From an archaeon (lineage in GTDB: Archaea > Micrarchaeota > Micrarchaeia > Norongarragalinales > UBA97), in contig JAGVFW010000011.1 of assembly GCA_020057405.1 (NCBI GenBank), positions 13,111-77,110 of the forward strand: a stretch of 64,000 bases of DNA, in the 5' to 3' direction. This document shows positions 12,822 through 34,189 of this stretch, piece by piece. The notes beneath the pieces are model-generated. The model did no database searches. It was given only the letters and a program-made list of their open reading frames with translations, and was not told the origin of the DNA. Within the stretch, counting starts at the first letter, position 1; each line of letters starts with the position of its first letter. Position numbers and translations under genes: made by a program.

Positions 12822-14642
12822 GTGAACGAACAGTCACTCGAGGCACAGTCAGAAGAAAAGAAGGGGATGGAGGGATTCGGCCTCGTCACCCTCCTGCTCG
12901 CCATCGGCATGCTGCTGCTCTACTTTAGCGCGGGGGGCGGCGACTCCAAGCAATTTCTCGAAAAAGCATCAAACTCCATCCAAAACCTGACTCAAACAAT
13001 CAGGGAAACGGGAAACGAGCCAACTCCGCAACCAACCCCGGCGGAGATTGGCTCAACGGCAACTCCGACGCCAGAGGCCGAAGGCGAGTTTGCGCAATGC
13101 GGGTGCCCCAAAACCTATTCACCCGTATGCGGTTCCGACGGCAACACCTACTACAATGGCTGCATGGCAAGATGTCGCGGAAAAGAAATCGCGAACGCCG
13201 AAAACTGCGTAAAACCGTGGATAACGCCAGTACCAACGCCCAACCCAAGCTCGACGCCTACACCAACTCCGCTGCCAAGCACGACCCCCACGCCCAACCC
13301 CTCGCCAACAATTAGCCCCACGCCAAGCCCAACTCCCACCCCGACGCCAAGCCCAACGCCCTCACCGACTCCCACGCCAACCGCGAGCCCAACGCCACAA
13401 GCGGACTTCACTTTCGGCTGGTACACGATGGTCGAAACCGGATCCTTTGCCAACCTCAGTGCAATAGCCAGTGCCGGCGGATCGAACACGGTAATTGCCT
13501 ACTCGTGGCCAGCCGAATGCGGCGGCTGGGGACCCACGGTGAACCACTCTTGCTGGAGAAACTACCTTGATGCCGCACAAGCCCGCGGAATCAAAGTATG
13601 GGCTGAAGTTCCAAGAAACCTGGTCAATGCCCAAAACTTCACGGGATTGAGGCAATTTGCCCAAGGCCTCAGGGGCCACCCGGCACTCGCGGCGTACTAC
13701 CTTTCCGACGAGCCCGACCAGGCGTTCTGGCAAAACGACCCTAGGTTCAGCCCACAAAACATGACACTCGCATACCAAGTGCTAAAACAAGAAGACCCCC
13801 AAACGCTAGTAACCCACGTGGTTGTGCAAGTGGGCTTTGGCGTTTACCCGCAACTCGACTGCAGCGCGTACGGCGACCCAAGCAAGCACCACCTAGGGTG
13901 CCACAAGCCCTACGGACAAAACACGGCCATCTACAACGCTAGCACTTGCGGGGAACGCGATTTGTGCAACCTCGCCTACTACGAACCGTCCGCCGACATC
14001 CTCTCTACCGACTACTACCCGTTCGAGTATGGACTCGAAGGCCAAACCATCAAGAACGTGACAGTCTACCCCTACTGGCCCTTCGACCGCACCAAAAAAT
14101 GGAGCGAATACGCCAAAGCCCGGGGCAAAAACTACGTAGCGATAGTGCAAGGAACCTACTGGCTCGACCGGCTTATTTCGATGACGCCCGAACAACTGGA
14201 ATTGCATCCCACAAAACAAGAATACCGCTTCTACTCAATAGGCAACATGCTGGAGGGGGCAACCGGCATCATCGCATTCGTTGCCTACCGCTCTTCCCAA
14301 AATGTTAGGAACAACATCATCGCACCCGCCTACAGCGACATACAATCGTACAAAAAACTATTTTATGACGGCATCGCGGCGTCATGTGTTCCGGCCCAGG
14401 AATGCGCGGAAGTAATAGCAAAAACCACTCAAGACGGAACCGACGGAACACTTATTGGTGCGCTTAACGCCAATTTCACAACTCAGCGAACCATCACGCT
14501 TGCCCTGCCCGCCCCGGTCACCTCGGTCAAGCTCTTTGAAAACGGCGTCCTGCAAGACTACCCCGGCCTAATCAGCATAAACGGAAACGCCATTACAATC
14601 CGGTTAGAACCCCAGCAAGCAGTACTGCTAAAAGCAAGCTGA
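12822..14642 (+). CDS. membrane-anchored Kazal-domain protein with Pro/Thr linker and glycosidase-like TIM-barrel domain (family unassigned)
   Basis: GTG start; N-terminal 75 aa ~85% identical to the 14863 paralog; Kazal [29 protein letters not shown]...ENC; long PTPSPTP linker; C-terminal domain with YYLSDEPD (acid/base-like) motif. Confidence 0.7.
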
Positions 14643-14862: not shown

Positions 14863-17229
14863 GTGGACGAACAGGCACTCGAGGCACAGGCTGATGAGAA
14901 GAAGGGAATGGAGGGATTCGGCCTCGTCACCCTCCTACTCGCCATCGGAATGCTCATGCTCTACTTCAGCGCGGGGGGCGGCGACTCCAAGCAAATGCTC
15001 CAAAACGCATCAAACACCGTCCAAGACATAACCCAAACAATCAAAGAAACGAGCAACGAGCCGACGCCGGAGCCAAGCGAACCCACGCCAGAACCATCTA
15101 CTGAAACGCCCACGCCGCCTCCTGGGGAAGAGCAAAACGAGTTTACACAATGCGGATGCCCCGAACTCTATTCTCCAGTGTGCGGAGAGGATGAAATAAC
15201 ATACTACAACGCGTGCATGGCACGCTGCCGCGGGCGAAGCATAGTCGACGGCCAATACTGCGACCCGAACAACTGGCCAACTCCCCGGCCAACACCGACG
15301 CCAACCGTAACGCCCAAACCAAGCCCCACGCCAACCCCTTGCCCAAGCTGCGCAACGCCGACCCCTACACCCACGCCAAGCCCAACTCCCAGCCCTGGCC
15401 CCACTCCAATGCCAACCCCGCCACTCGATTATTCGGGCTACTGGAGTTTCGACAACTACAGCTCCACAACGGTCTTTGATGCGTCACCAAACCACTTTGA
15501 CGCAGCCTATACCGCAGGCGACTCGAGCCAAAACAGCGTCAACGGTGCTTTTGGAAAATCACTCAAGACCACCCAAACGAACTACGCCCGCGCGGCAGGA
15601 GACGCCCTCACCGACGGCCCGTTCACCGTAACCAGCTGGTTCAAGCACGACGCCGAACTCGTCTCCGACCAACCAACTCCCTGGGTAGGCGGCTTGGGCA
15701 AGGCCTACCGCATGCGCTTGGGCTGGATGGGCGGCGGCACGGACTTTTACCAAGGTGGCTGGATGTGCAAAATCAATTCCGGCAACGCGCCAAGCGTCTA
15801 TCAAGTTTATCCAGTCAAGGCAGGCGTTTGGTACAATGTCGCATGCACTTGGGACGGCAGCTCGATTAAACTCTATGTCAACGGCTCGCTAGTGCGAAGC
15901 GACAGCTACGCTAGCCAAAGCTATGTTGGCAGCGAACAGTTTGACTTTGGACGCTCAAGCGACACTTACTGGGTCGGCAGCATTGACGAAGTGAGAGTGT
16001 ATCGGCGAGCACTTTCCGAAAGCGAACTCTTGACAATGTCGCCCGACTGGGCCAAGAAGCGCCAGACTGAAACACCCAAATCCACCTACTCCTTCACTGA
16101 CTCGATTGGAGTAAACATGCACGACTGGCCTAACTATGAGTCGGCAATCGCCCCCCGCGTGCGCGAACTGGGCGTCAAGCACCTGCGCGACAACCTGTGG
16201 TTCATCAACAAGAGCGCCTGGACCCAAACTAAGATGCGCCAACACATTGGGGACGGCGTAAAATACGCCTTGATTCCCGACCAATTCATGCTCAACGCCA
16301 CCGACGTCGTGCCCTATCTCAAGTTCCTCTACGGCAACCTCTCAGGGCAGTACGGTAATTCATTCATCGACGTAGTCGAAGGGCCAAACGAGCCCGACAA
16401 CTTCTACGACAACGTTCCGAACATCCTGCAAAAAACATTCGACTACCACACTTCGATGTACGCCGCTATCAAGGCCGACTCACAAACGCAGGCAATCAAA
16501 GTCGCCGCGCCGTCACTCACACTAAGCCACGACCGAAGCGCCTTCGACGACTACAACTACGCACCCATTGCCGACTACGCAAACGGACATTTCTACCAGG
16601 AACCCCTAAATCCCGGCTACCCACTCATCGACAAGAGCGAATACTACGTCAAGGGCGAAGCGCCCGGCCTACCCGTGCTTGTGACAGAAGCAGGCTACAC
16701 TACCTACTCCGGCGGCTTTAGCGAAACATTACAGTCGAAATACCTCGTGCGCACGCTCCTCGAATACTTCAACCGCGGCTACCCCCGCACCTACCTCTAC
16801 GACTTTGCAAACGACGGCCCATCAGGCGACGACCAGTACCACTCGCGCTTCGGGCTAGTAACCTGGGACGCGGTGCCAAAACCCTCATTCTACGCAATCA
16901 AGAACCTCATCACCATCCTCTCCGACACTAGCACGCCAATAACGCCACACGCTCTTGACTATGAACTCGAGACAACTAGTGCCGACCTTCATCACCTGCT
17001 CTTGCAGAAGACAAACGGCGACTGGTACCTCGTGTTGTGGCTCGAACGCAAGAGCACCGACACCGACGTCACTGCACAAGTGACAATCCGCACCTACACT
17101 CCGGTGACGCAAGCGCAGTTATTCGAGCCCCACGTCTCGGCAAGCGCAACGCAAACTTTCGCCAACCCCGCAGTAATTACGCTAAACGTGCCGGACAAGG
17201 CAGTGATTGTCAAGCTCACTCCCGCTTAA
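14863..17229 (+). CDS. membrane-anchored Kazal-domain protein with Pro/Thr linker, LamG/ConA-like lectin domain and clan GH-A glycoside hydrolase domain
   Basis: Kazal [29 protein letters not shown]; PCPSC-containing PT linker; LamG signature [22 protein letters not shown]; GH-A acid/base [10 protein letters not shown] and nucleophile [10 protein letters not shown]. Confidence 0.75.
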
Positions 17230-17313: not shown

Positions 17314-17940
17314 TTAGACGCGAAGGCCCGTTTCACGCATTGCCTTTCGCAACTCCTCGATTCCCTGCTTGTTGGAGTCGAAATTAATCCCGCAAATGCC
17401 GAGCTTGCGCGCGGTTGCAATGTTCTCTGGAGTGTCGTCAACGAACACCACGCGGCTTGGCGAAATGCCGAAGCGGCGCAGCATGTGGACGAATATAGCG
17501 TCGTCCGGCTTTTTCGCACCAACTTGGCTGGAGAAAATCACTTCGTCAAAGAGGCTGTCAAACCCGAACCGGCTCTCCATTCCCTGGCGGAAAAGCTCGT
17601 TGTTGTTGCTTAGAATGACGATGACGTAATTCTCGCGCAATTCCTTAAGCAGCTTGCGCATTCCTGGCGTCTCTTTCAGCCGCTGCAAGTCGGGCGTTCC
17701 TGTGACAAGCACGCCGCCGAAGTCAAAGCCGACCACGCGGCGGTTGACGTAGAGGCGGTAGGCAAAATGCAAGTAATAGGCAACGGCATAGCAAACGGCT
17801 GCGAGCACCGGCAACAACAAGCCCTCAAACAAGTCAGGCCAAGCGTAGAAGCCTCCCGCAAAAAGCACGACCGCCCAAAACAACTGCCCCCGGCGAAAGC
17901 CGAAGAGACGCATCAAACCCATAGCACAATTTGCCCGCAA
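17314..17940 (-). CDS. HAD-superfamily hydrolase with N-terminal membrane segment and degenerate motif I
   Basis: Motif I VVGFDFGGVL (second Asp replaced by Gly), motif II ILSNN, motif III KKPD, motif IV FVDDT; two N-terminal hydrophobic helices. Confidence 0.65.
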   Translation of the reverse strand: MRANCAMGLMRLFGFRRGQLFWAVVLFAGGFYAWPDLFEGLLLPVLAAVCYAVAYYLHFAYRLYVNRRVVGFDFGGVLVTGTPDLQRLKETPGMRKLLKELRENYVIVILSNNNELFRQGMESRFGFDSLFDEVIFSSQVGAKKPDDAIFVHMLRRFGISPSRVVFVDDTPENIATARKLGICGINFDSNKQGIEELRKAMRETGLRV

Positions 17941-17946
17941 CTGGTT

Positions 17947-18936
17947 TTAAAGCGTGGTGACGGGGCGCGCCTGCACTATGTAGAAGACACCTGACTCGAG
18001 GGCCCACTCAAGGTCTTGGGGCGAACCGTAGTGCACCTCGATGCGGTTGCACAGCCGCGAAAGCTCAAGTACCTTGAGGCCGGAGAGCTTCTGCTTGGCG
18101 CGCTTGTCTGCAGGCACTGGCAGGTGTTGCGTGCCGCCAGTAGGCCCGCGGACAATCATTTCCTCCTGTTCATTCACCTGCACGTCGAGAAGCATTTCCT
18201 CAGCCTTGTCGACAACGTACTTGTCTGGAGTAATCAGCCCGCCCACTATTGCCTCGCCAAGACCGAAGCCCGCCTCGATTACCATCTGGTTGCGGTCGCG
18301 AGTGACGGGATTGACGGTGAAGGCAACGCCGCTCACCTCGCTCTCGACCATCTTTTGCACGACAACACCCACGCCCACTTGCGCCTTCTCCAGGCCCTGC
18401 TCAAAGCGGTAGAAAATCGCGCGGGGAGTGAAGAGCGATGCCCAGCACTTTCGCACGGTTGGCAAAAGCGTCTCGCCAGTCGTATTGAGGTAGCTTTCTA
18501 ACTCTCCGGCCCAACTCGCTGCCGAAGCATCCTCGGCGGTTGCACTCGAGCGTACTGCGACAAAACGCGCGCCGAGAGTATTGAATTGCGCAGTTATGGC
18601 ACTGGCCATGTCTTGAGGAATATCTGCCGACTCAATCAACGAACGGATATTCTTGCTTGCCGCGTCAACGCTCGACGTGTTGTGCTGGTCCACTTTAGCC
18701 AATTCAATGGCAATCTTTCCCCCAAGCCCGTTAACGCGGATGAATTCATCAAATGAAGCAACAGAAACGACAAAACCTGGCGGGACAGGAATGCCGGCCG
18801 CAGTCATTTCACCAAGCTGCGCACCCTTGCCCCCAGCAATTGCAACGCTGGCCTTCGAAAGAGAAGCAAAAGGCAAGACAAACTTTTCCATAAACCTAAC
18901 CCCAAACTCTATCGTAATTGTGGCCTGCTGCGACAA
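17947..18936 (-). CDS. stand-alone PEP/pyruvate-binding ATP-grasp domain protein (PPDK_N; PEP synthase / rifampin phosphotransferase-like)
   Basis: VAIAGGKGAQLGEM...PVPPGFVV...WASLFTPRAIFYR...GVAFTVNP match the PPDK N-terminal nucleotide-binding domain; ORF stops after this domain. Confidence 0.75.
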   Translation of the reverse strand: MSQQATITIEFGVRFMEKFVLPFASLSKASVAIAGGKGAQLGEMTAAGIPVPPGFVVSVASFDEFIRVNGLGGKIAIELAKVDQHNTSSVDAASKNIRSLIESADIPQDMASAITAQFNTLGARFVAVRSSATAEDASAASWAGELESYLNTTGETLLPTVRKCWASLFTPRAIFYRFEQGLEKAQVGVGVVVQKMVESEVSGVAFTVNPVTRDRNQMVIEAGFGLGEAIVGGLITPDKYVVDKAEEMLLDVQVNEQEEMIVRGPTGGTQHLPVPADKRAKQKLSGLKVLELSRLCNRIEVHYGSPQDLEWALESGVFYIVQARPVTTL

Positions 18937-19030
18937 CGGGCTTTTCCTCCCGCGGCACGCCCTGCCACACCTGCATGAGAAATATGATGACGAGCAGCGT
19001 GAAGATGATGTCGCTCTCGCTCATGTTTCT

Positions 19031-20584
19031 CTACCCCTCTAGCTTCCTTACGATACCCTTGACCGCGTCAACCTCGACCAAGTCACCGTCCTTGAGCACT
19101 TTCGTCGCAATTTTCGTGCCAATGACGCAAGGCACGCCAAGCTCGCGGCTCACTATCGCCGCGTGCGAAGTGACTCCACCCTGCTCGGTGACGATTGCGC
19201 CTGCCTTCTTCATCGCAGGAACGACGTCAGGATTCGTTGCAATTGCGACTAGGATGTCTCCCTGCTGCATCTTCGGCAGGTCGGCTGGTGACAAGACGAT
19301 TTTCACTCTGCCGGTTGCCTTCCCTAGGCAGGCGCACTGGCCGTGAAGCTCGCTGATGTTACCGTCAACCTGGACAACTGCGGTTGAGGCAAGAAGCGCC
19401 GCGTCGTCGCCAGTGACTAGCATGTCACGGCCTTTCTCCGAGTAGAGGACAAACTCGCTGCGCGAGCTTAGTTTCTCCAAGTCGAAGCTGCCTGTAAGCA
19501 GCGCCTCGTACTCTTTCGGCAGCATCGTTCGGGCTTGGTCTAGCGTGATGCCCTTGCGCTTGGCGATTTCCTTGAAAACCGCACGCAGGCGGTAGACTGC
19601 ACGCAATTGCCGGTAGCGGCGGTAGAGTTTCGTGAGCATGAACTGGCCGAAAACGTGGAAGAGCCGCTTGAACTTGCCGTCCATTCCAATTTTTGCCTCG
19701 AGGTCTGCCTTCTCAAGCGCCTTGACTTTCAGGTCGTTCTCGATGCCCTCAAGCTCCTCAGAGGGCGACTTGCCGGACTTGAGGTAGTCGGAGAGCTCGC
19801 CAATGTAGTGCCTAACTGGTGCCTTTTCGCCTACCCAGAGGGCCGAGATTGGCGAATACTCGCCGTAGTAGGCAAGCAACATGTCCCCGGCCTTGCCGCG
19901 CATCTCCGCCTCGATCACGTCGGCCGGCTGGTGAAGGAACAACTGCTTGTGGAAAGCGTTGTTCTCGATCTCAATTGCAATTGAGAGGAACCGCTCGTGC
20001 TGTTCCGCTTCCTCGCTGCGGTCGGAGGGGGTGGTCAATGCAACGAAAAGCGTGTTGACCTCGTCCTCGCCATTTGCTTTTGTGCGCAGGTAGCGCTTGA
20101 GAAGTTCAGTAAACTCAGGGTAGAACATGTCGGTCGCGTTTGGCAGCCAGCCCCACTCGTAGAGCGAGGAATGCACTTCCAAGTGGTCCTTGAGAAGGAG
20201 CCACAGCTGGGCGTCGGAGAGCGGCTTGAGGTCGGCAGGAATTTTCTTGCCGCTTGCCTCAAGGGCATCCGAGTGCCGCACGATCTCGGAGTTTATTTTC
20301 TCGCCGTAGCCGGGGTCGGCGTCCATCTTGTTGACTAAGTTTAGCGTGAAGTCAAGGCAGCTTTGCTTGCCGTAGTAGAAGCTCATGTCACGGCCCTTGA
20401 AGTGGCCGAGGATTTTGCTGTAGTTTCTCCCGCAGCTGTCCTCCATGTTGTTGACAAAAGCGCGGAGCCAGATTTGGCAGAAGAAAAAGTCAATGTTGGG
20501 AATGTCTTCAGCAACCATCCACTCGTCGCCGTCAGCCAAGCACTTGAGCCCGTTCTCTTTCGAGAGTTGTTCGATTCGTTCCAT
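19031..20584 (-). CDS. PEP-utilising enzyme mobile (His-swivel) domain protein with ~400-aa unassigned N-terminal domain
   Basis: C-terminal GGVTSHAAIVSRELGVPCVIGT is the phospho-His swivel signature; N-terminal region has no motif I recognise. Confidence 0.7.
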   Translation of the reverse strand: MERIEQLSKENGLKCLADGDEWMVAEDIPNIDFFFCQIWLRAFVNNMEDSCGRNYSKILGHFKGRDMSFYYGKQSCLDFTLNLVNKMDADPGYGEKINSEIVRHSDALEASGKKIPADLKPLSDAQLWLLLKDHLEVHSSLYEWGWLPNATDMFYPEFTELLKRYLRTKANGEDEVNTLFVALTTPSDRSEEAEQHERFLSIAIEIENNAFHKQLFLHQPADVIEAEMRGKAGDMLLAYYGEYSPISALWVGEKAPVRHYIGELSDYLKSGKSPSEELEGIENDLKVKALEKADLEAKIGMDGKFKRLFHVFGQFMLTKLYRRYRQLRAVYRLRAVFKEIAKRKGITLDQARTMLPKEYEALLTGSFDLEKLSSRSEFVLYSEKGRDMLVTGDDAALLASTAVVQVDGNISELHGQCACLGKATGRVKIVLSPADLPKMQQGDILVAIATNPDVVPAMKKAGAIVTEQGGVTSHAAIVSRELGVPCVIGTKIATKVLKDGDLVEVDAVKGIVRKLEG

Positions 20585-20658
20585 GGTAGTGTGTATGGCC
20601 GGAACTTTCGAAGTAGGTTTAGCCAGCGCACGCTGGTAGGTATAAAAAGCGGGGGTAA

Positions 20659-21399
20659 TCAGCGGACGTTTTGCAGCAAATCGGCAAGGAAGGGCATGAA
20701 CTTGGCTTGGGCTTTTCGCAAGTGCTCGCTCGCCGTCGCCACGCTGATGCCGAGTGATGCGGCAATCTCGTCTACTGAAATTCTTTTGGGAGTGTCGAAG
20801 TAGCCTTTGCGGACTGCGTATGAAATGACTTCCATCTGCTTTGGCGAAAGAGCTGCTGCGACTGACTTGAACGCAAGCATTTCTTGGAGGCCGAGGTAGG
20901 CCGTCGGCTTTGCCTTGCGCGGGTCAAGCACCCTCTTTCTAAGCAGCTTGACCTCGAAATTGTCCTTTAGAAGCGAATAGAGCTCTCGCAACTGCTTCTC
21001 GTCCTGCACGTAAATCGCCGACGAGTCAACGCCGCCTTTCGTAAGCGAGGGCTCAAGTGGCACCGCGCCAGTCTTGCCGATGGTTTCAATCAAGAGAGAC
21101 TCCGGCTTGCTTCGAAGATAGACGAGTGCGCGGTCTCCGTGGCGCTCGACGAGGCGGATGTCTTTGACGTGCTTGTGCGCCTTGAGCGCGTTAATCAACT
21201 TCGAAACGTCTTCTTCCGCCTCGACCTCGTAGAGGCCCGAAGCGATGCCGTTTCCGTAGGCAAGCGGCGAAATCAAGCTCACGCGAGCGCCGTGAACGCG
21301 ATTCACGCAGTCGATGCAAAAGCAAGTGTGAACCCACTGGAGCTCGACGAGCATGGGCCGCTCGTGCTTGACCGGCTCGATTTTCAAAACCTTGGACAT
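20659..21399 (-). CDS. HTH_10 (Bat-type) transcriptional regulator
   Basis: C-terminal TPKRISVDEIAASLGISVATASEHLRKAQAKF helix-turn-helix. Confidence 0.65.
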   Translation of the reverse strand: MSKVLKIEPVKHERPMLVELQWVHTCFCIDCVNRVHGARVSLISPLAYGNGIASGLYEVEAEEDVSKLINALKAHKHVKDIRLVERHGDRALVYLRSKPESLLIETIGKTGAVPLEPSLTKGGVDSSAIYVQDEKQLRELYSLLKDNFEVKLLRKRVLDPRKAKPTAYLGLQEMLAFKSVAAALSPKQMEVISYAVRKGYFDTPKRISVDEIAASLGISVATASEHLRKAQAKFMPFLADLLQNVR

Positions 21400-21515
21400 A
21401 GAAAACTAGTGGGAAAGGCGGAATAAAAAACGCGCTTTTGGTGCAGCTTTTGAGGAGCGAGAAGCGAGCCGCCCAACGGAGGGCGGGAGCCTCGCAGCGA
21501 CGAAAAAAGGTGCAG

Positions 21516-21620
21516 TGGGCCCAGCCGGAATCGGACCGGCGATCTTTCGCACGTCAAGCGAACGTCCTTGGCCAACAGTATACCAAAGTATGCTGTCGTT
21601 TACCATTCGACTATGGGCCC
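21516..21620 (-). tRNA. tRNA-Val(GAC) with a ~31-nt intron at the non-canonical 25/26 position
   Basis: Perfect 7-bp acceptor GGGCCCA/TGGGCCC, D-arm GTCG-AATGGTAAA-CGAC, then a 31-nt insert (hairpin CAGCATAC-TTTG-GTATACTG), then G26, anticodon arm TTCGC-TTGACGT-GCGAA, variable loop AGATC, T-arm GCCGG-TCCGATT-CCGGC, discriminator A; 74 nt without the insert. Confidence 0.5.
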
Positions 21621-21653
21621 AAATGGATGATACTATAATGTTGCGAATGGTTT

Positions 21654-22325
21654 TTATTTCGCTAATATTGACATCCGACCTGACTCTACCCAAGCCTCGT
21701 AGCGTGAAATGTTGCGCGGATTGCTGCTTCCAACGAAGGAAAACCAGTTTTTGGTGTTCGCAATGCCGTTGACGCCGACAATGTGACCTGATTCGTAGGC
21801 CGAAAAACCCGCTTCGCGCAAGATTGCCTTAATTTGGAGTCGAAGAGGCTCGCTGGAACTGCTGATTATCGCAAACGGCCGACGATAGCCCTCTGACTTT
21901 CTAGCGGCAAAGCACCCATCAGTGTCAAAAATTCCCCTAACGACACGCAGCTTCTTTACAAGCTGCAGAGCTACAATCCAGTCAGGCAGACGGATTTGGC
22001 CCTTCTTGCCTATTGGAAAGCCTACTTTCACGAGAATCAAGGCGAATTCCTTGTTGTTTATGACAAGGTCAACGGTATTGACGTTCTTGACATTAGTAGG
22101 TTTGCGCAAGTGAAGGTACGAATTGACGCCCAACTCAGTCAACAAAGGCTGCAAATAATTTTTAAAATATTGAAGGTCAGTCGTTGCGTTTCCGGTGATG
22201 AAGATGCGGTAGGCAACTAAACCGCCCGCGTCCTTTCTCTTAAAACGAACTAAGCAGCCGTCGCCAACAAGAGCGCCAAATAGCTCTAGAAAAGAATGAG
22301 ACTCAAGGTCAAAAAGCGGCTTCAT
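21654..22325 (-). CDS. free-standing LAGLIDADG homing endonuclease (double-motif)
   Basis: Two dodecapeptide motifs, LELFGALVGDGCL and VVRGIFDTDGCF, ~100 aa apart; own start and stop; not embedded in a host ORF. Confidence 0.75.
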   Translation of the reverse strand: MKPLFDLESHSFLELFGALVGDGCLVRFKRKDAGGLVAYRIFITGNATTDLQYFKNYLQPLLTELGVNSYLHLRKPTNVKNVNTVDLVINNKEFALILVKVGFPIGKKGQIRLPDWIVALQLVKKLRVVRGIFDTDGCFAARKSEGYRRPFAIISSSSEPLRLQIKAILREAGFSAYESGHIVGVNGIANTKNWFSFVGSSNPRNISRYEAWVESGRMSILAK

Positions 22326-22380: not shown

Positions 22381-22818
22381 TTACTTAAGCTCTTTTCTGA
22401 TGAGGCTCGCGGTGGCGAAGAGGTCTTTTTCGGCCGGTTCGGTGCGCAAACCCATTTCCTTGACGGCCACCTGCGTGAAAACGTCGTCGCCGTCGCGGCG
22501 GGGAAGCAAGTGCACGTGAACGTGCCTCTTGACGTACTTGCCTTCGGGCAGGTAAGGGCGGAAGTGCTGGCGCATGTCGACCCCGTCGCCCAAGCCCGCG
22601 GCGAGTATCGCCTTCTCGACGCGCGCGACGACTTTAAAGAGGTCAAGTAGCTCGGCGTCGGGAACTTCCATAAGCGACTCGTGGTGCGTCCTCGTCGTTA
22701 CGAGGCAGTGGCCCTCTGCAATGGGATGCTTGTCCATAAACGCGATCGAGTGGGCAGTTTGCGCAATCACGCCCTCGTGAGGGTTGTCGCGGATGTGGCA
22801 GAAGTCGCAGTTGTGCAT
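22381..22818 (-). CDS. HIT-family hydrolase
   Basis: Histidine triad HVHVHLLPR; N-terminal C.FCHI; start chosen at the internal Met. Confidence 0.8.
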   Translation of the reverse strand: MHNCDFCHIRDNPHEGVIAQTAHSIAFMDKHPIAEGHCLVTTRTHHESLMEVPDAELLDLFKVVARVEKAILAAGLGDGVDMRQHFRPYLPEGKYVKRHVHVHLLPRRDGDDVFTQVAVKEMGLRTEPAEKDLFATASLIRKELK

Positions 22819-22875
22819 CAAACAATTTGAGCACACAGGCAGATATAAATTAGAAATGTGCACTAGAAAGAACCG

Positions 22876-23187
22876 ATGCACCCTCTTTACGAGAAGCTCG
22901 TTGAAAAACTAAGGCAGTTTCCTGCAAAAGTAAGCAGTTTCAGTACGCCCAATCACCATTCGCTCGAAGTGGTATTTCACGTGGGGGACATGCGCGAAGA
23001 AGAAACATACGCTGCTGAGAGCAGTATTAGGGACGCTTTTGAGTTTGCCCACGGAATCATGAGCAAGGGACATCTTGAAGTGCAGGTCCGCCCATCAAAA
23101 GGGCTCTTTGAGCTAAGTGCCATCGGGCACAGCAACAAGGGAGTTGAACTCGTTAGGTTCCTGCACGATAGGCTGAAGGAAAGATAA
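22876..23187 (+). CDS. hypothetical protein (103 aa)
   Basis: ORF with coding composition; no motif. Confidence 0.35.
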   Translation: MHPLYEKLVEKLRQFPAKVSSFSTPNHHSLEVVFHVGDMREEETYAAESSIRDAFEFAHGIMSKGHLEVQVRPSKGLFELSAIGHSNKGVELVRFLHDRLKER

Positions 23188-33948: not shown

Positions 33949-34144
33949 GTGCCCGAGAGGACACGCGAGCCACCTGCCAAATTAGGTTAGGAACTGGTGA
34001 GTTGAATGAATTTCGTTAGTGCGTCAAAAAAAGAAAAAGTGCTCGAAAGGACGAGAGAGTCACCCACCAAATACAATTGGGGAGAACTCGAATATATTTC
34101 TTGTGCCGGTGTGCTCGAGAGGGTAAGAGGGTCACCCACCAAGT
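33949..34144 (+). repeat. three degenerate direct copies of a ~34-nt motif (GTGCYCGARAGG...GAG.CACCYRCCAARY), periods 90 and 72 nt
   Basis: Copies at 33949-33982, 34039-34072 and 34111-34144, ~75-80% pairwise identity; the third lies inside the tRNA-like gene. Confidence 0.6.
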
Positions 34145-34189
34145 GACTGCGCGCAGGCGCAGTGTGGGGTTCAAATCCCCACCGCCGGC
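34105..34189 (+). ncRNA. aberrant type-II tRNA-like gene (long variable arm; anticodon loop CCACCAA), possibly a pseudo-tRNA
   Basis: Acceptor GCCGGTG/CGCCGGC, U8, D-arm, stem-loop GTCAC-CCACCAA-GTGAC, 17-nt variable arm (TGCGC-GCAG-GCGCA), T-arm TGGGG-TTCAAAT-CCCCA; but one extra nt lies between the T-stem and acceptor, and the loop has C33/A34. Confidence 0.35.

Follow-up and report, generated by a model that had tools for sequence, protein, structure and literature searches.

The window analysed here is a 64,000-nucleotide (nt) stretch of contig JAGVFW010000011.1 (assembly GCA_020057405.1) from an archaeon of the Micrarchaeota. Between positions 21399 and 17314 its minus strand carries four open reading frames (ORFs) in one orientation, designated R, A, B and C, which encode a transcription regulator, a phosphohistidine swivel protein with a large acceptor domain, an ATP-grasp protein and a membrane-anchored hydrolase of the HAD superfamily, respectively. 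With a small ORF (sORF) located between A and B, the region is a four-gene operon, A-sORF-B-HAD, with the HTH_10 regulator gene in front. The features are as follows (protein lengths in amino acids, aa):

20659–21399, minus strand: R, 246 aa, HTH_10/BAT transcription regulator, immediately upstream of A.
20641–20648, minus strand: TTTTTATA, possible archaeal TATA box in the R-A intergenic region; its resemblance to the consensus was read by eye.
19031–20584, minus strand: A, 517 aa, acceptor/swivel component, with Pfam PEP-utilizers on residues 440–510.
18896–19024, minus strand: sORF, 42-aa peptide MSESDIIFTLLVIIFLMQVWQGVPREEKPVVAAGHNYDRVWG, one hydrophobic helix followed by a polar tail.
17947–18891, minus strand: B, 314 aa, stand-alone ATP-grasp (PPDK_N) component.
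17947–18936, minus strand: the long form of the B ORF, 329 aa when read from a TTG codon.
17314–17940, minus strand: C, HAD hydrolase of 199–208 aa (Pfam Hydrolase/HAD_2) with a two-helix N-terminal anchor.

The spacing is operon-like, with gaps of 6 nt between A and the sORF, 4 nt between the sORF and B, and 6–24 nt between B and C. Three of the ORFs (A, B and C) had been picked out in the original prediction, which was made from the sequence alone; all three are present on the minus strand where it had located them, and their domains were confirmed by Pfam search with E-values that exclude chance. No second copy of A, B or the HAD gene was found within the window, and the best name-bearing homologs belong to Candidatus Micrarchaeota. 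For comparison, 80 loci (L001–L080) were fetched from species-representative genomes, which gives 81 with the window, and further loci (L081–L086) were added; the locus maps rest on a simple caller of longest ORFs and on BLAST clustering by single linkage.

In protein A, Pfam assigned a PEP-utilizers domain to residues 440–510 (E 3.4e-26) and left residues 1–400 without assignment. The swivel motif quoted in the original prediction, GGVTSHAAIVSRELGVPCVIGT, corresponds to residues 469–490, and the segment T466-E-Q-G-G-V-T472-S-H474 fits the motif T/S-x-x-G-G-x-x-x-H, whose His is essential in HpeH (PMC12167813). H474, G469 and G470 were invariant across 34 orthologs of A, T466 was kept in at least 90% of them, and H474 was also retained in the paralogs found in gene arrays. 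Further residues conserved specifically in the orthologs are E26, D32, H138, Y142, K319, R322 and R323. When A was compared by sequence with solved structures, only its last ~110–160 residues matched: the swivel domain aligned with the archaeal phosphoenolpyruvate (PEP) synthase 8a8e (E 6.6e-30, identity ~65% by eye), and residues 359–514 aligned with residues 712–865 of rifampin phosphotransferase (RPH; E 2e-15). Residues 1–400 form a domain whose fold is homologous to that of the RPH RIF-binding domain, with an identity of only 17%, and residues ~405–517 form the phosphohistidine swivel domain. RPH is a single chain with an ATP-grasp domain (residues 1–314), a RIF-binding domain (327–754) and a swivel domain (767–865) (PMC4844700). 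From this order, A corresponds to RPH minus the ATP-grasp domain, and B to the domain that is missing. The description of A as a 517-aa protein with a ~400-aa domain and a His-swivel domain was thus right for the swivel, and the domain that had been called unassigned proved to be RIF-binding-like in fold. It had also been considered that these N-terminal 400 residues might be the TIM-barrel domain of PEP-utilising enzymes; no such Pfam match was obtained, and together with the RPH-like fold this rules the TIM-barrel identity out.

The NCBIfam models of PEP synthase, RPH, PigC and PRK08296 matched A in the swivel domain only and far below their cut-offs. The score with NF005057 (PEP synthase/PPDK) was 127.4 bits for A and 321.6 bits for B (cut-off 598), and that with NF041857 (rifamycin phosphotransferase) was 60.6 bits for A and 298.6 bits for B (cut-off 999).

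Protein B showed a Pfam PPDK_N match with an E-value of 2.5e-96, and it aligned over its full length with the ATP-grasp domains of PEP synthase and RPH, as well as with 9goj, a stand-alone 387-aa chain whose code is cited in the HpeHI paper. The E-values against these structures were 1.1e-71 (archaeal PEP synthase 8a8e), 1.7e-62 (RPH, 5hv1) and 6.4e-50 (9goj); the label given to B by JGI is 'pyruvate, water dikinase'. Since the alignment of the long B ORF with the family profiles starts at its residue 16, and both P0271 (100% identical to B) and the L081 ortholog are 314 aa long, the true start of B is almost certainly the ATG at 18891 (MEKFVLPF...), which gives a protein of 314 instead of 329 aa. 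A complete stand-alone PPDK_N domain had been predicted, and this stands with the shorter length. Stand-alone homologs of B of 311–318 aa with 57–70% identity are abundant, those with names being labelled Patescibacteria and Micrarchaeota.

Protein C matched Pfam Hydrolase/HAD_2 (E about 1e-18) and showed the elements expected for the HAD superfamily, namely the Asp nucleophile in motif I (FDFGG, D73, with G75 at the D+2 position), a Ser in motif II (S111), a Lys in motif III (K144), the acidic pair of motif IV (D168-D169) and a Rossmannoid core. Two features typical of the HAD-IA group, the D+2 Asp (replaced by Gly75) and the C1 cap, are absent, and only about 30 residues separate motif I from motif II. 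The AlphaFold2 model of C (predicted local distance difference test score 81) contained helices at residues 17–33 and 42–66 followed by the Rossmannoid core, with no cap. The second N-terminal segment is strongly hydrophobic and the first moderately so; Arg-rich segments lie beside both helices and an acidic loop lies between them, and by the positive-inside rule the catalytic domain would face the cytoplasm. Six orthologs of C (57–100% identity) kept both FD[FVL]GG and the hydrophobic N-terminal region of ~65 residues, with Gly at D+2 in C and all six. P0121, which is identical to C, and P0124 place the start of C probably at the ATG at 17922 (202 aa) or at 17913 (199 aa). A HAD protein with N-terminal membrane helices and a DFGG motif I on the same strand is therefore borne out by Pfam, the motifs and the model. 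The DFGG motif loses the status of an oddity that it had been given, because the solved HAD 2i6x, which matches C, carries the same DxGG motif I (FDLGGVLI), and the loss of the D+2 Asp alone thus has a precedent. C also matched the E. coli glucose-1-phosphate phosphatase YihX by sequence; it differs from both 2i6x and YihX in lacking a cap and in having the two-helix membrane anchor.

A 95-nt spacer supposed to separate A from B had been suspected of hiding a frameshift. Frame 2 of this region instead codes for MSESDIIFTLLVIIFLMQVWQGVPREEKPVVAAGHNYDRVWG in 42 codons (19024–18896), and an ortholog with 81% identity was called as a 42-aa gene directly after A in L081–L083, where A is 91% identical to that of the window. 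Between the window sORF and the L081–L083 copy there are 10 synonymous codon differences, 8 conservative replacements and no indels. A 39-aa paralog of the sORF follows another A paralog in L081, with an acidic start, a hydrophobic helix, a PRxxK/E segment and a RIWG end. No homolog of the sORF was found downstream of the A genes in L001–L080; the small hydrophobic ORFs of L084 and L085 are analogous to it without detectable similarity in sequence. The end of A and the start of B match those of their homologs and the gap holds a conserved ORF, so that a frameshift or fusion of A and B is ruled out. Such a fusion would place the swivel before the ATP-grasp domain, and would not restore the canonical order anyway.

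Single-helix peptides of 30–66 aa, with an acidic N-terminus, a hydrophobic helix, a Trp and a polar tail, recur beside A genes in the Micrarchaeota loci (window 18896–19024, minus strand; L081 3726–3854 and 8304–8423; L084 7780–7980; L085 10372–10464), and three of them, that of the window and the two of L081, end in R[IV]WG.

Protein R matched Pfam HTH_10 (E 8.5e-19) and BAT (E 1.1e-6). The R-A intergenic region is 74 nt long, with the TTTTTATA box situated 57 nt upstream of the A start codon, and a comparable T/A-rich box, read by eye, lies in front of R. In 16 related loci, for the most part with a Micrarchaeota label, the gene immediately before the A ortholog is an HTH_10 homolog, and HTH_10 genes are also found before A paralogs in L081–L085. 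In other family members a DNA-binding domain is part of the same chain, as in the A ortholog P0093, which has an N-terminal XRE (HTH_3) domain, and in P0118 and P0119, which have winged-helix (HTH_20/MarR) domains. These fused XRE and winged-helix domains and the adjacent HTH_10 genes would be in keeping with enzymes sensing a small ligand.

More than 3,500 word-sharing homologs of A were found, with 2,674 cluster representatives at E ≤ 1e-30, and the 81 loci contained 262 genes of the A family (window counted). Genes of at least 330 aa were present in one copy in 31 loci and in two to nine copies in the other 50. The longest arrays were found in Patescibacteria loci (for example L033, L036, L047 and L048), L044 being arrayed as well, and the swivel domain of sampled A paralogs was confirmed by Pfam. 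One ATP-grasp gene and one HAD gene go with such Patescibacteria arrays. The orthogroup of the window A occurs once per locus, partly by construction of the search. The acceptor domain was 37% and the swivel domain 71% identical in orthologs of A, as against 18% and 56% in paralogs; a swivel domain so much better conserved than the acceptor domain fits one shared partner and diverse substrates. B was found at most once per locus, and the B-containing loci held 22 B and 63 A genes. This ratio of one B to many A, together with the conservation of the swivel domain, supports the partnership of A and B. B follows the conserved A directly in L050, L052, L054 and L060. The order in L085, a Micrarchaeota locus at a greater distance, is A-B-HAD-HTH_10-A', with a B 58% identical to that of the window and an anchored, capless HAD (FDFVGV), and that in L081–L083 is A'-A-sORF-HAD-B, in which HAD and B are swapped with respect to the window. 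Related HAD genes lay beside A genes in 15 of the 81 loci; their D+2 residue was N, Y, H, A or G and in none of them Asp. The HADs of the Patescibacteria arrays have caps.

A soluble, cap-bearing HAD (FDLSGVV) is encoded between the sORF and B in L081 (3858–4454), and P0122, the ortholog of the membrane-anchored HAD of the window, is located elsewhere on that contig (L081 1–408). Among the A representatives, P0129 and P0132 belong to forms of 1,000–2,600 aa with 3–6 A-like stretches, which may be true fusions or read-through gene calls, and the 581–583-aa Nanoarchaeota forms of the P0081/P0096 type have an N-terminal extension without Pfam match, one of them being labelled DUF2683. Other neighbours of the arrays were an acylphosphatase, a phosphoribosyltransferase, a weak histidine-phosphatase-like protein and a Bro-N protein. 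A HIT-family protein is encoded in the window at 22381–22881 (minus strand), 1 kb upstream of R, and HIT homologs (cluster c15) lie beside the A arrays in L034, L040 and L050, which may be a coincidence. In three Micrarchaeota loci (L004 616–5152, L005 and L009) early mevalonate-pathway genes are located immediately upstream of R-A; those of L004 were confirmed by Pfam as HMG-CoA reductase, an HMG-CoA synthase-like protein, a thiolase and a ChsH2/DUF35-type OB protein. No paper on such swivel-protein arrays in the candidate phyla radiation (CPR) or DPANN was found in the literature searched.

The original prediction had proposed a two-protein phosphotransfer from an ATP-grasp protein to a swivel His and on to an acceptor, with a HAD on the same strand, and this is supported by the domains, the motif and the linkage of the genes. 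Four features of the dikinase type were found: a separate PPDK_N component, a second component with a RIF-binding-like and a C-terminal swivel domain, the His motif, and adjacent co-oriented genes. With a probability of about three in four, A and B would constitute a two-component small-molecule dikinase of the RPH/PpsAB/HpeHI type, in which charging by ATP is followed by transfer to an acceptor, with the HAD acting later and the regulator controlling the system. We infer that B would bind ATP and pass its β-phosphoryl group to His474 of the A swivel domain, the γ-phosphate leaving as Pi, so that AMP and Pi would be the products. The swivel domain would then swing back onto the RIF-binding-like N-terminal domain of A itself and phosphorylate a hydroxyl or similar nucleophile of the bound small molecule. 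On the cytoplasmic face of the membrane the HAD would most likely remove the phosphate or hand it on at a later step, like the δ subunit of phenylphosphate carboxylase (Ppc δ), and the HTH_10 protein would most likely render expression substrate-dependent.

Several points weigh against this dikinase reading. The dikinase chemistry of the DPANN/Patescibacteria clade is predicted from homology, and the gene maps of the survey come from a simple ORF caller. No B gene was found within 6 kb of A in L001–L016, the 16 loci nearest to A, and L086 has a B without an A; co-location of the two is thus common and not obligatory. The clade of characterised enzymes is marked by ~45% pairwise identity among HpeH, CreH and PpsA and by Met at the position two residues before the His (His-2). 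Judged by the NCBIfam scores and by Thr472 at His-2, A probably falls outside it; the Thr is found in PEP synthase and PPDK, and HpeH has Met. With kinase and phosphatase encoded in the same operon, a futile cycle would also arise unless other steps part them, and C, having no D+2 acid, may be a slow phosphatase or have another activity.

It is possible, if rather speculative, that the operon is the minimal form of a modular phosphorylation system common to DPANN archaea and Patescibacteria, with one B charger and many A proteins, for host-derived small molecules. The highly conserved charger would serve up to nine diversified A paralogs, many of them with their own fused or adjacent HTH regulator. 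A HAD in which the D+2 acid is systematically missing would accompany them, and small membrane peptides would join it in Micrarchaeota. By such means ultra-small symbionts might trap, activate or neutralise a range of small molecules from their hosts.

The phosphate of His474 might be passed to a protein and not to a small molecule, in a phosphorelay with Asp73 of the HAD, the HTH_10 regulator or the small membrane peptide as receiver. HADs without the D+2 acid are expected to keep the aspartyl-phosphate longer, and all 15 array-linked HADs lack the D+2 Asp; capless HADs often act on macromolecules, and that of the window is capless; A is, moreover, repeatedly fused to or located beside DNA-binding domains. 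Such a relay is nevertheless unlikely, since the 400-aa domain of A is retained in full and is homologous to one that binds a small molecule, the characterised relatives all phosphorylate small molecules, and the HADs of the Patescibacteria arrays do have caps. The HTH fusions are equally typical of enzyme-repressors that sense a small ligand, as are BirA and NadR. If the acceptor is a small molecule, it might be a toxic compound of the host or community, inactivated by an RPH-like antibiotic or xenobiotic resistance kinase. This would agree with the fold homology to the RIF-binding domain of RPH, with the kinases acting on antibiotics in the wider family of RPH, which are small-molecule dikinases (PMC4844700), and with the diversified paralog arrays and dedicated regulators, which fit inducible detoxification. 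It seems improbable in view of the 17% identity to RPH and the score of 60.6 bits against a cut-off of 999; in addition, the A ortholog, 40–45% identical across archaeal and bacterial loci and present once per locus, resembles a housekeeping protein more than a resistance determinant, and the co-encoded phosphatase would reverse the inactivation. The idea of an anti-phage defence system was dropped after a PADLOC search, in which A, B, C and the sORF gave no match and R only weak HTH matches.

A phenylphosphate synthase, or a related kinase activating phenol for the breakdown of aromatics, would have the same two-component layout as PpsAB, CreHI and HpeHI, and genes for phenylphosphate synthase were annotated in a metagenome study of DPANN genomes, although the same study found no phenylphosphate carboxylase (PMC8091004). 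No UbiD/UbiX-type carboxylase or aromatic-catabolic gene was detected in the window or in the 86 loci examined. The PRK08296 models, which we take to represent PpsA-like proteins, match A in the swivel domain only, and A has Thr at His-2 where HpeH has Met, so that phenol activation is very improbable. Least of all are A and B to be regarded as a split PEP synthase or PPDK that serves central carbon metabolism, or as an assembly or frameshift artefact of such an enzyme. The best sequence matches of the swivel domain and of B are indeed archaeal PEP synthases, and the JGI label of B points the same way; this explanation is contradicted by the domain content (neither protein has the TIM-barrel domain, and the acceptor domain is RPH-like) and by the scores (127 bits for A and 322 bits for B against 598). 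As to an artefact, hundreds of homologs share the C-terminus of A and the N-terminus of B, a conserved gene occupies the gap between the two, and independent assemblies show the same split.

The split and permuted gene order has already been explained elsewhere and teaches little. The interest lies in the large DPANN/Patescibacteria clade and its A arrays, since these organisms have very small genomes with few recognisable kinases or salvage enzymes, yet carry up to nine tandem A copies of ~500 aa. A single identified substrate would give a function to thousands of genes labelled 'PEP-utilizing enzyme' or 'pyruvate, water dikinase', would correct the metabolic reconstructions in which A and B genes are read as PEP synthase or phenylphosphate synthase, and might reveal what these symbionts take from their hosts.

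Other genes near the operon encode Alba, DUF460, DUF2226 and LAGLIDADG proteins. A probable tRNA-Val(GAC) gene, interrupted behind its D arm (not a canonical place for an intron) by an insertion of ~30 nt, is located at 21516–21620 (minus strand). It was missed by ARAGORN and at the Rfam gathering score (its 3' part gave 22 bits in Rfam); when 28–36 nt were deleted, ARAGORN gave tRNA-Val(GAC) in 190 of the 190 variants in which any tRNA was found. The 95-aa ORF that overlaps it (21406–21693) is probably spurious. Directly upstream of this intron-containing tRNA-like gene, a free-standing LAGLIDADG_3 protein of 223 aa is encoded at 21654–22325 (minus strand). Two large paralogs (12822–14642 and 14863–17229, plus strand) converge on the operon; both have an N-terminal hydrophobic segment, a Kazal-type domain, unusual in archaea, and long Pro/Thr-rich linkers, and one has a Laminin_G_3 domain. 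At 34104–34189 (plus strand) ARAGORN reported an 86-nt tRNA-Gly with the unusual anticodon ACC, which was not reported at the Rfam gathering score and may be a false positive or an atypical tRNA.

The systems that resemble A and B most closely in architecture are HpeHI of Rhodococcus, CreHI of Corynebacterium and PpsAB of Thauera/Aromatoleum. HpeH (71 kDa) is homologous to the RIF-binding and swivel domains of RPH and, like the homologs examined alongside it, has Met at His-2 (PMC12167813). In phenylphosphate synthase the 70-kDa α subunit bears the His and the pps genes are adjacent in one operon; the δ subunit of the carboxylase belongs to the KDO-8-P-phosphatase (HAD) family and hydrolyses phenylphosphate slowly (PMC6114531). 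As in these enzymes, A combines an RPH-like acceptor domain with a C-terminal swivel domain, its ATP-grasp partner has ~35–40 kDa, the T/S-x-x-G-G-x-x-x-H motif is present and the genes are adjacent; the chemistry, yielding AMP, Pi and a phosphorylated product, is presumably shared. A HAD-like subunit, Ppc δ, acts later in the PpsAB pathway, and the operon described here also carries a HAD gene. The gene order, considered atypical in the original prediction, is hence the described layout of PpsAB, CreHI and HpeHI, a swivel/acceptor gene with a separate ATP-grasp gene; as the naming of the genes (α/β and H/I) implies, the swivel gene is the first there too. The differences concern the size of A (517 aa, ~58 kDa), which is about 100 residues shorter than HpeH and smaller than the ~70 kDa of these enzymes, the match to the ~600-aa PRK08296 models, confined to the swivel domain, the DPANN host, and the additional membrane-anchored HAD, 42-aa peptide and HTH_10 regulator.

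RPH (PDB 5hv1 and 5fbs) has the order ATP-grasp, RIF-binding and swivel domain in one chain, whereas two chains are encoded here with the ATP-grasp gene last, and both A and B score below the equivalog cut-off of RPH. In glucan, water dikinase (GWD1) a central domain (residues 483–926) is followed by the His domain (931–1050) and the ATP-binding domain (1069–1387) (PMC13553574). This order of acceptor-side, His and ATP-binding domains is colinear with A followed by B, and the likeness lies in the domain order, GWD1 being one eukaryotic chain that carries CBM45 modules and acts on glucan. PEP synthase and PPDK are the closest sequence relatives of both the A swivel domain and B, the latter being nearer to archaeal PEP synthase (1.1e-71) than to RPH (~1e-62) or 9goj (6.4e-50). 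They differ from A and B, which are split, have an RPH-like acceptor domain and lack the PEP/pyruvate TIM-barrel domain, Pfam giving only PEP-utilizers and PPDK_N. From these sequence comparisons we file the operon with the PpsA, HpeH and CreH enzymes as to its probable mode of action, A not being their ortholog. The arrangement is already known, and the operon is a new and divergent member of the two-component dikinase kind.

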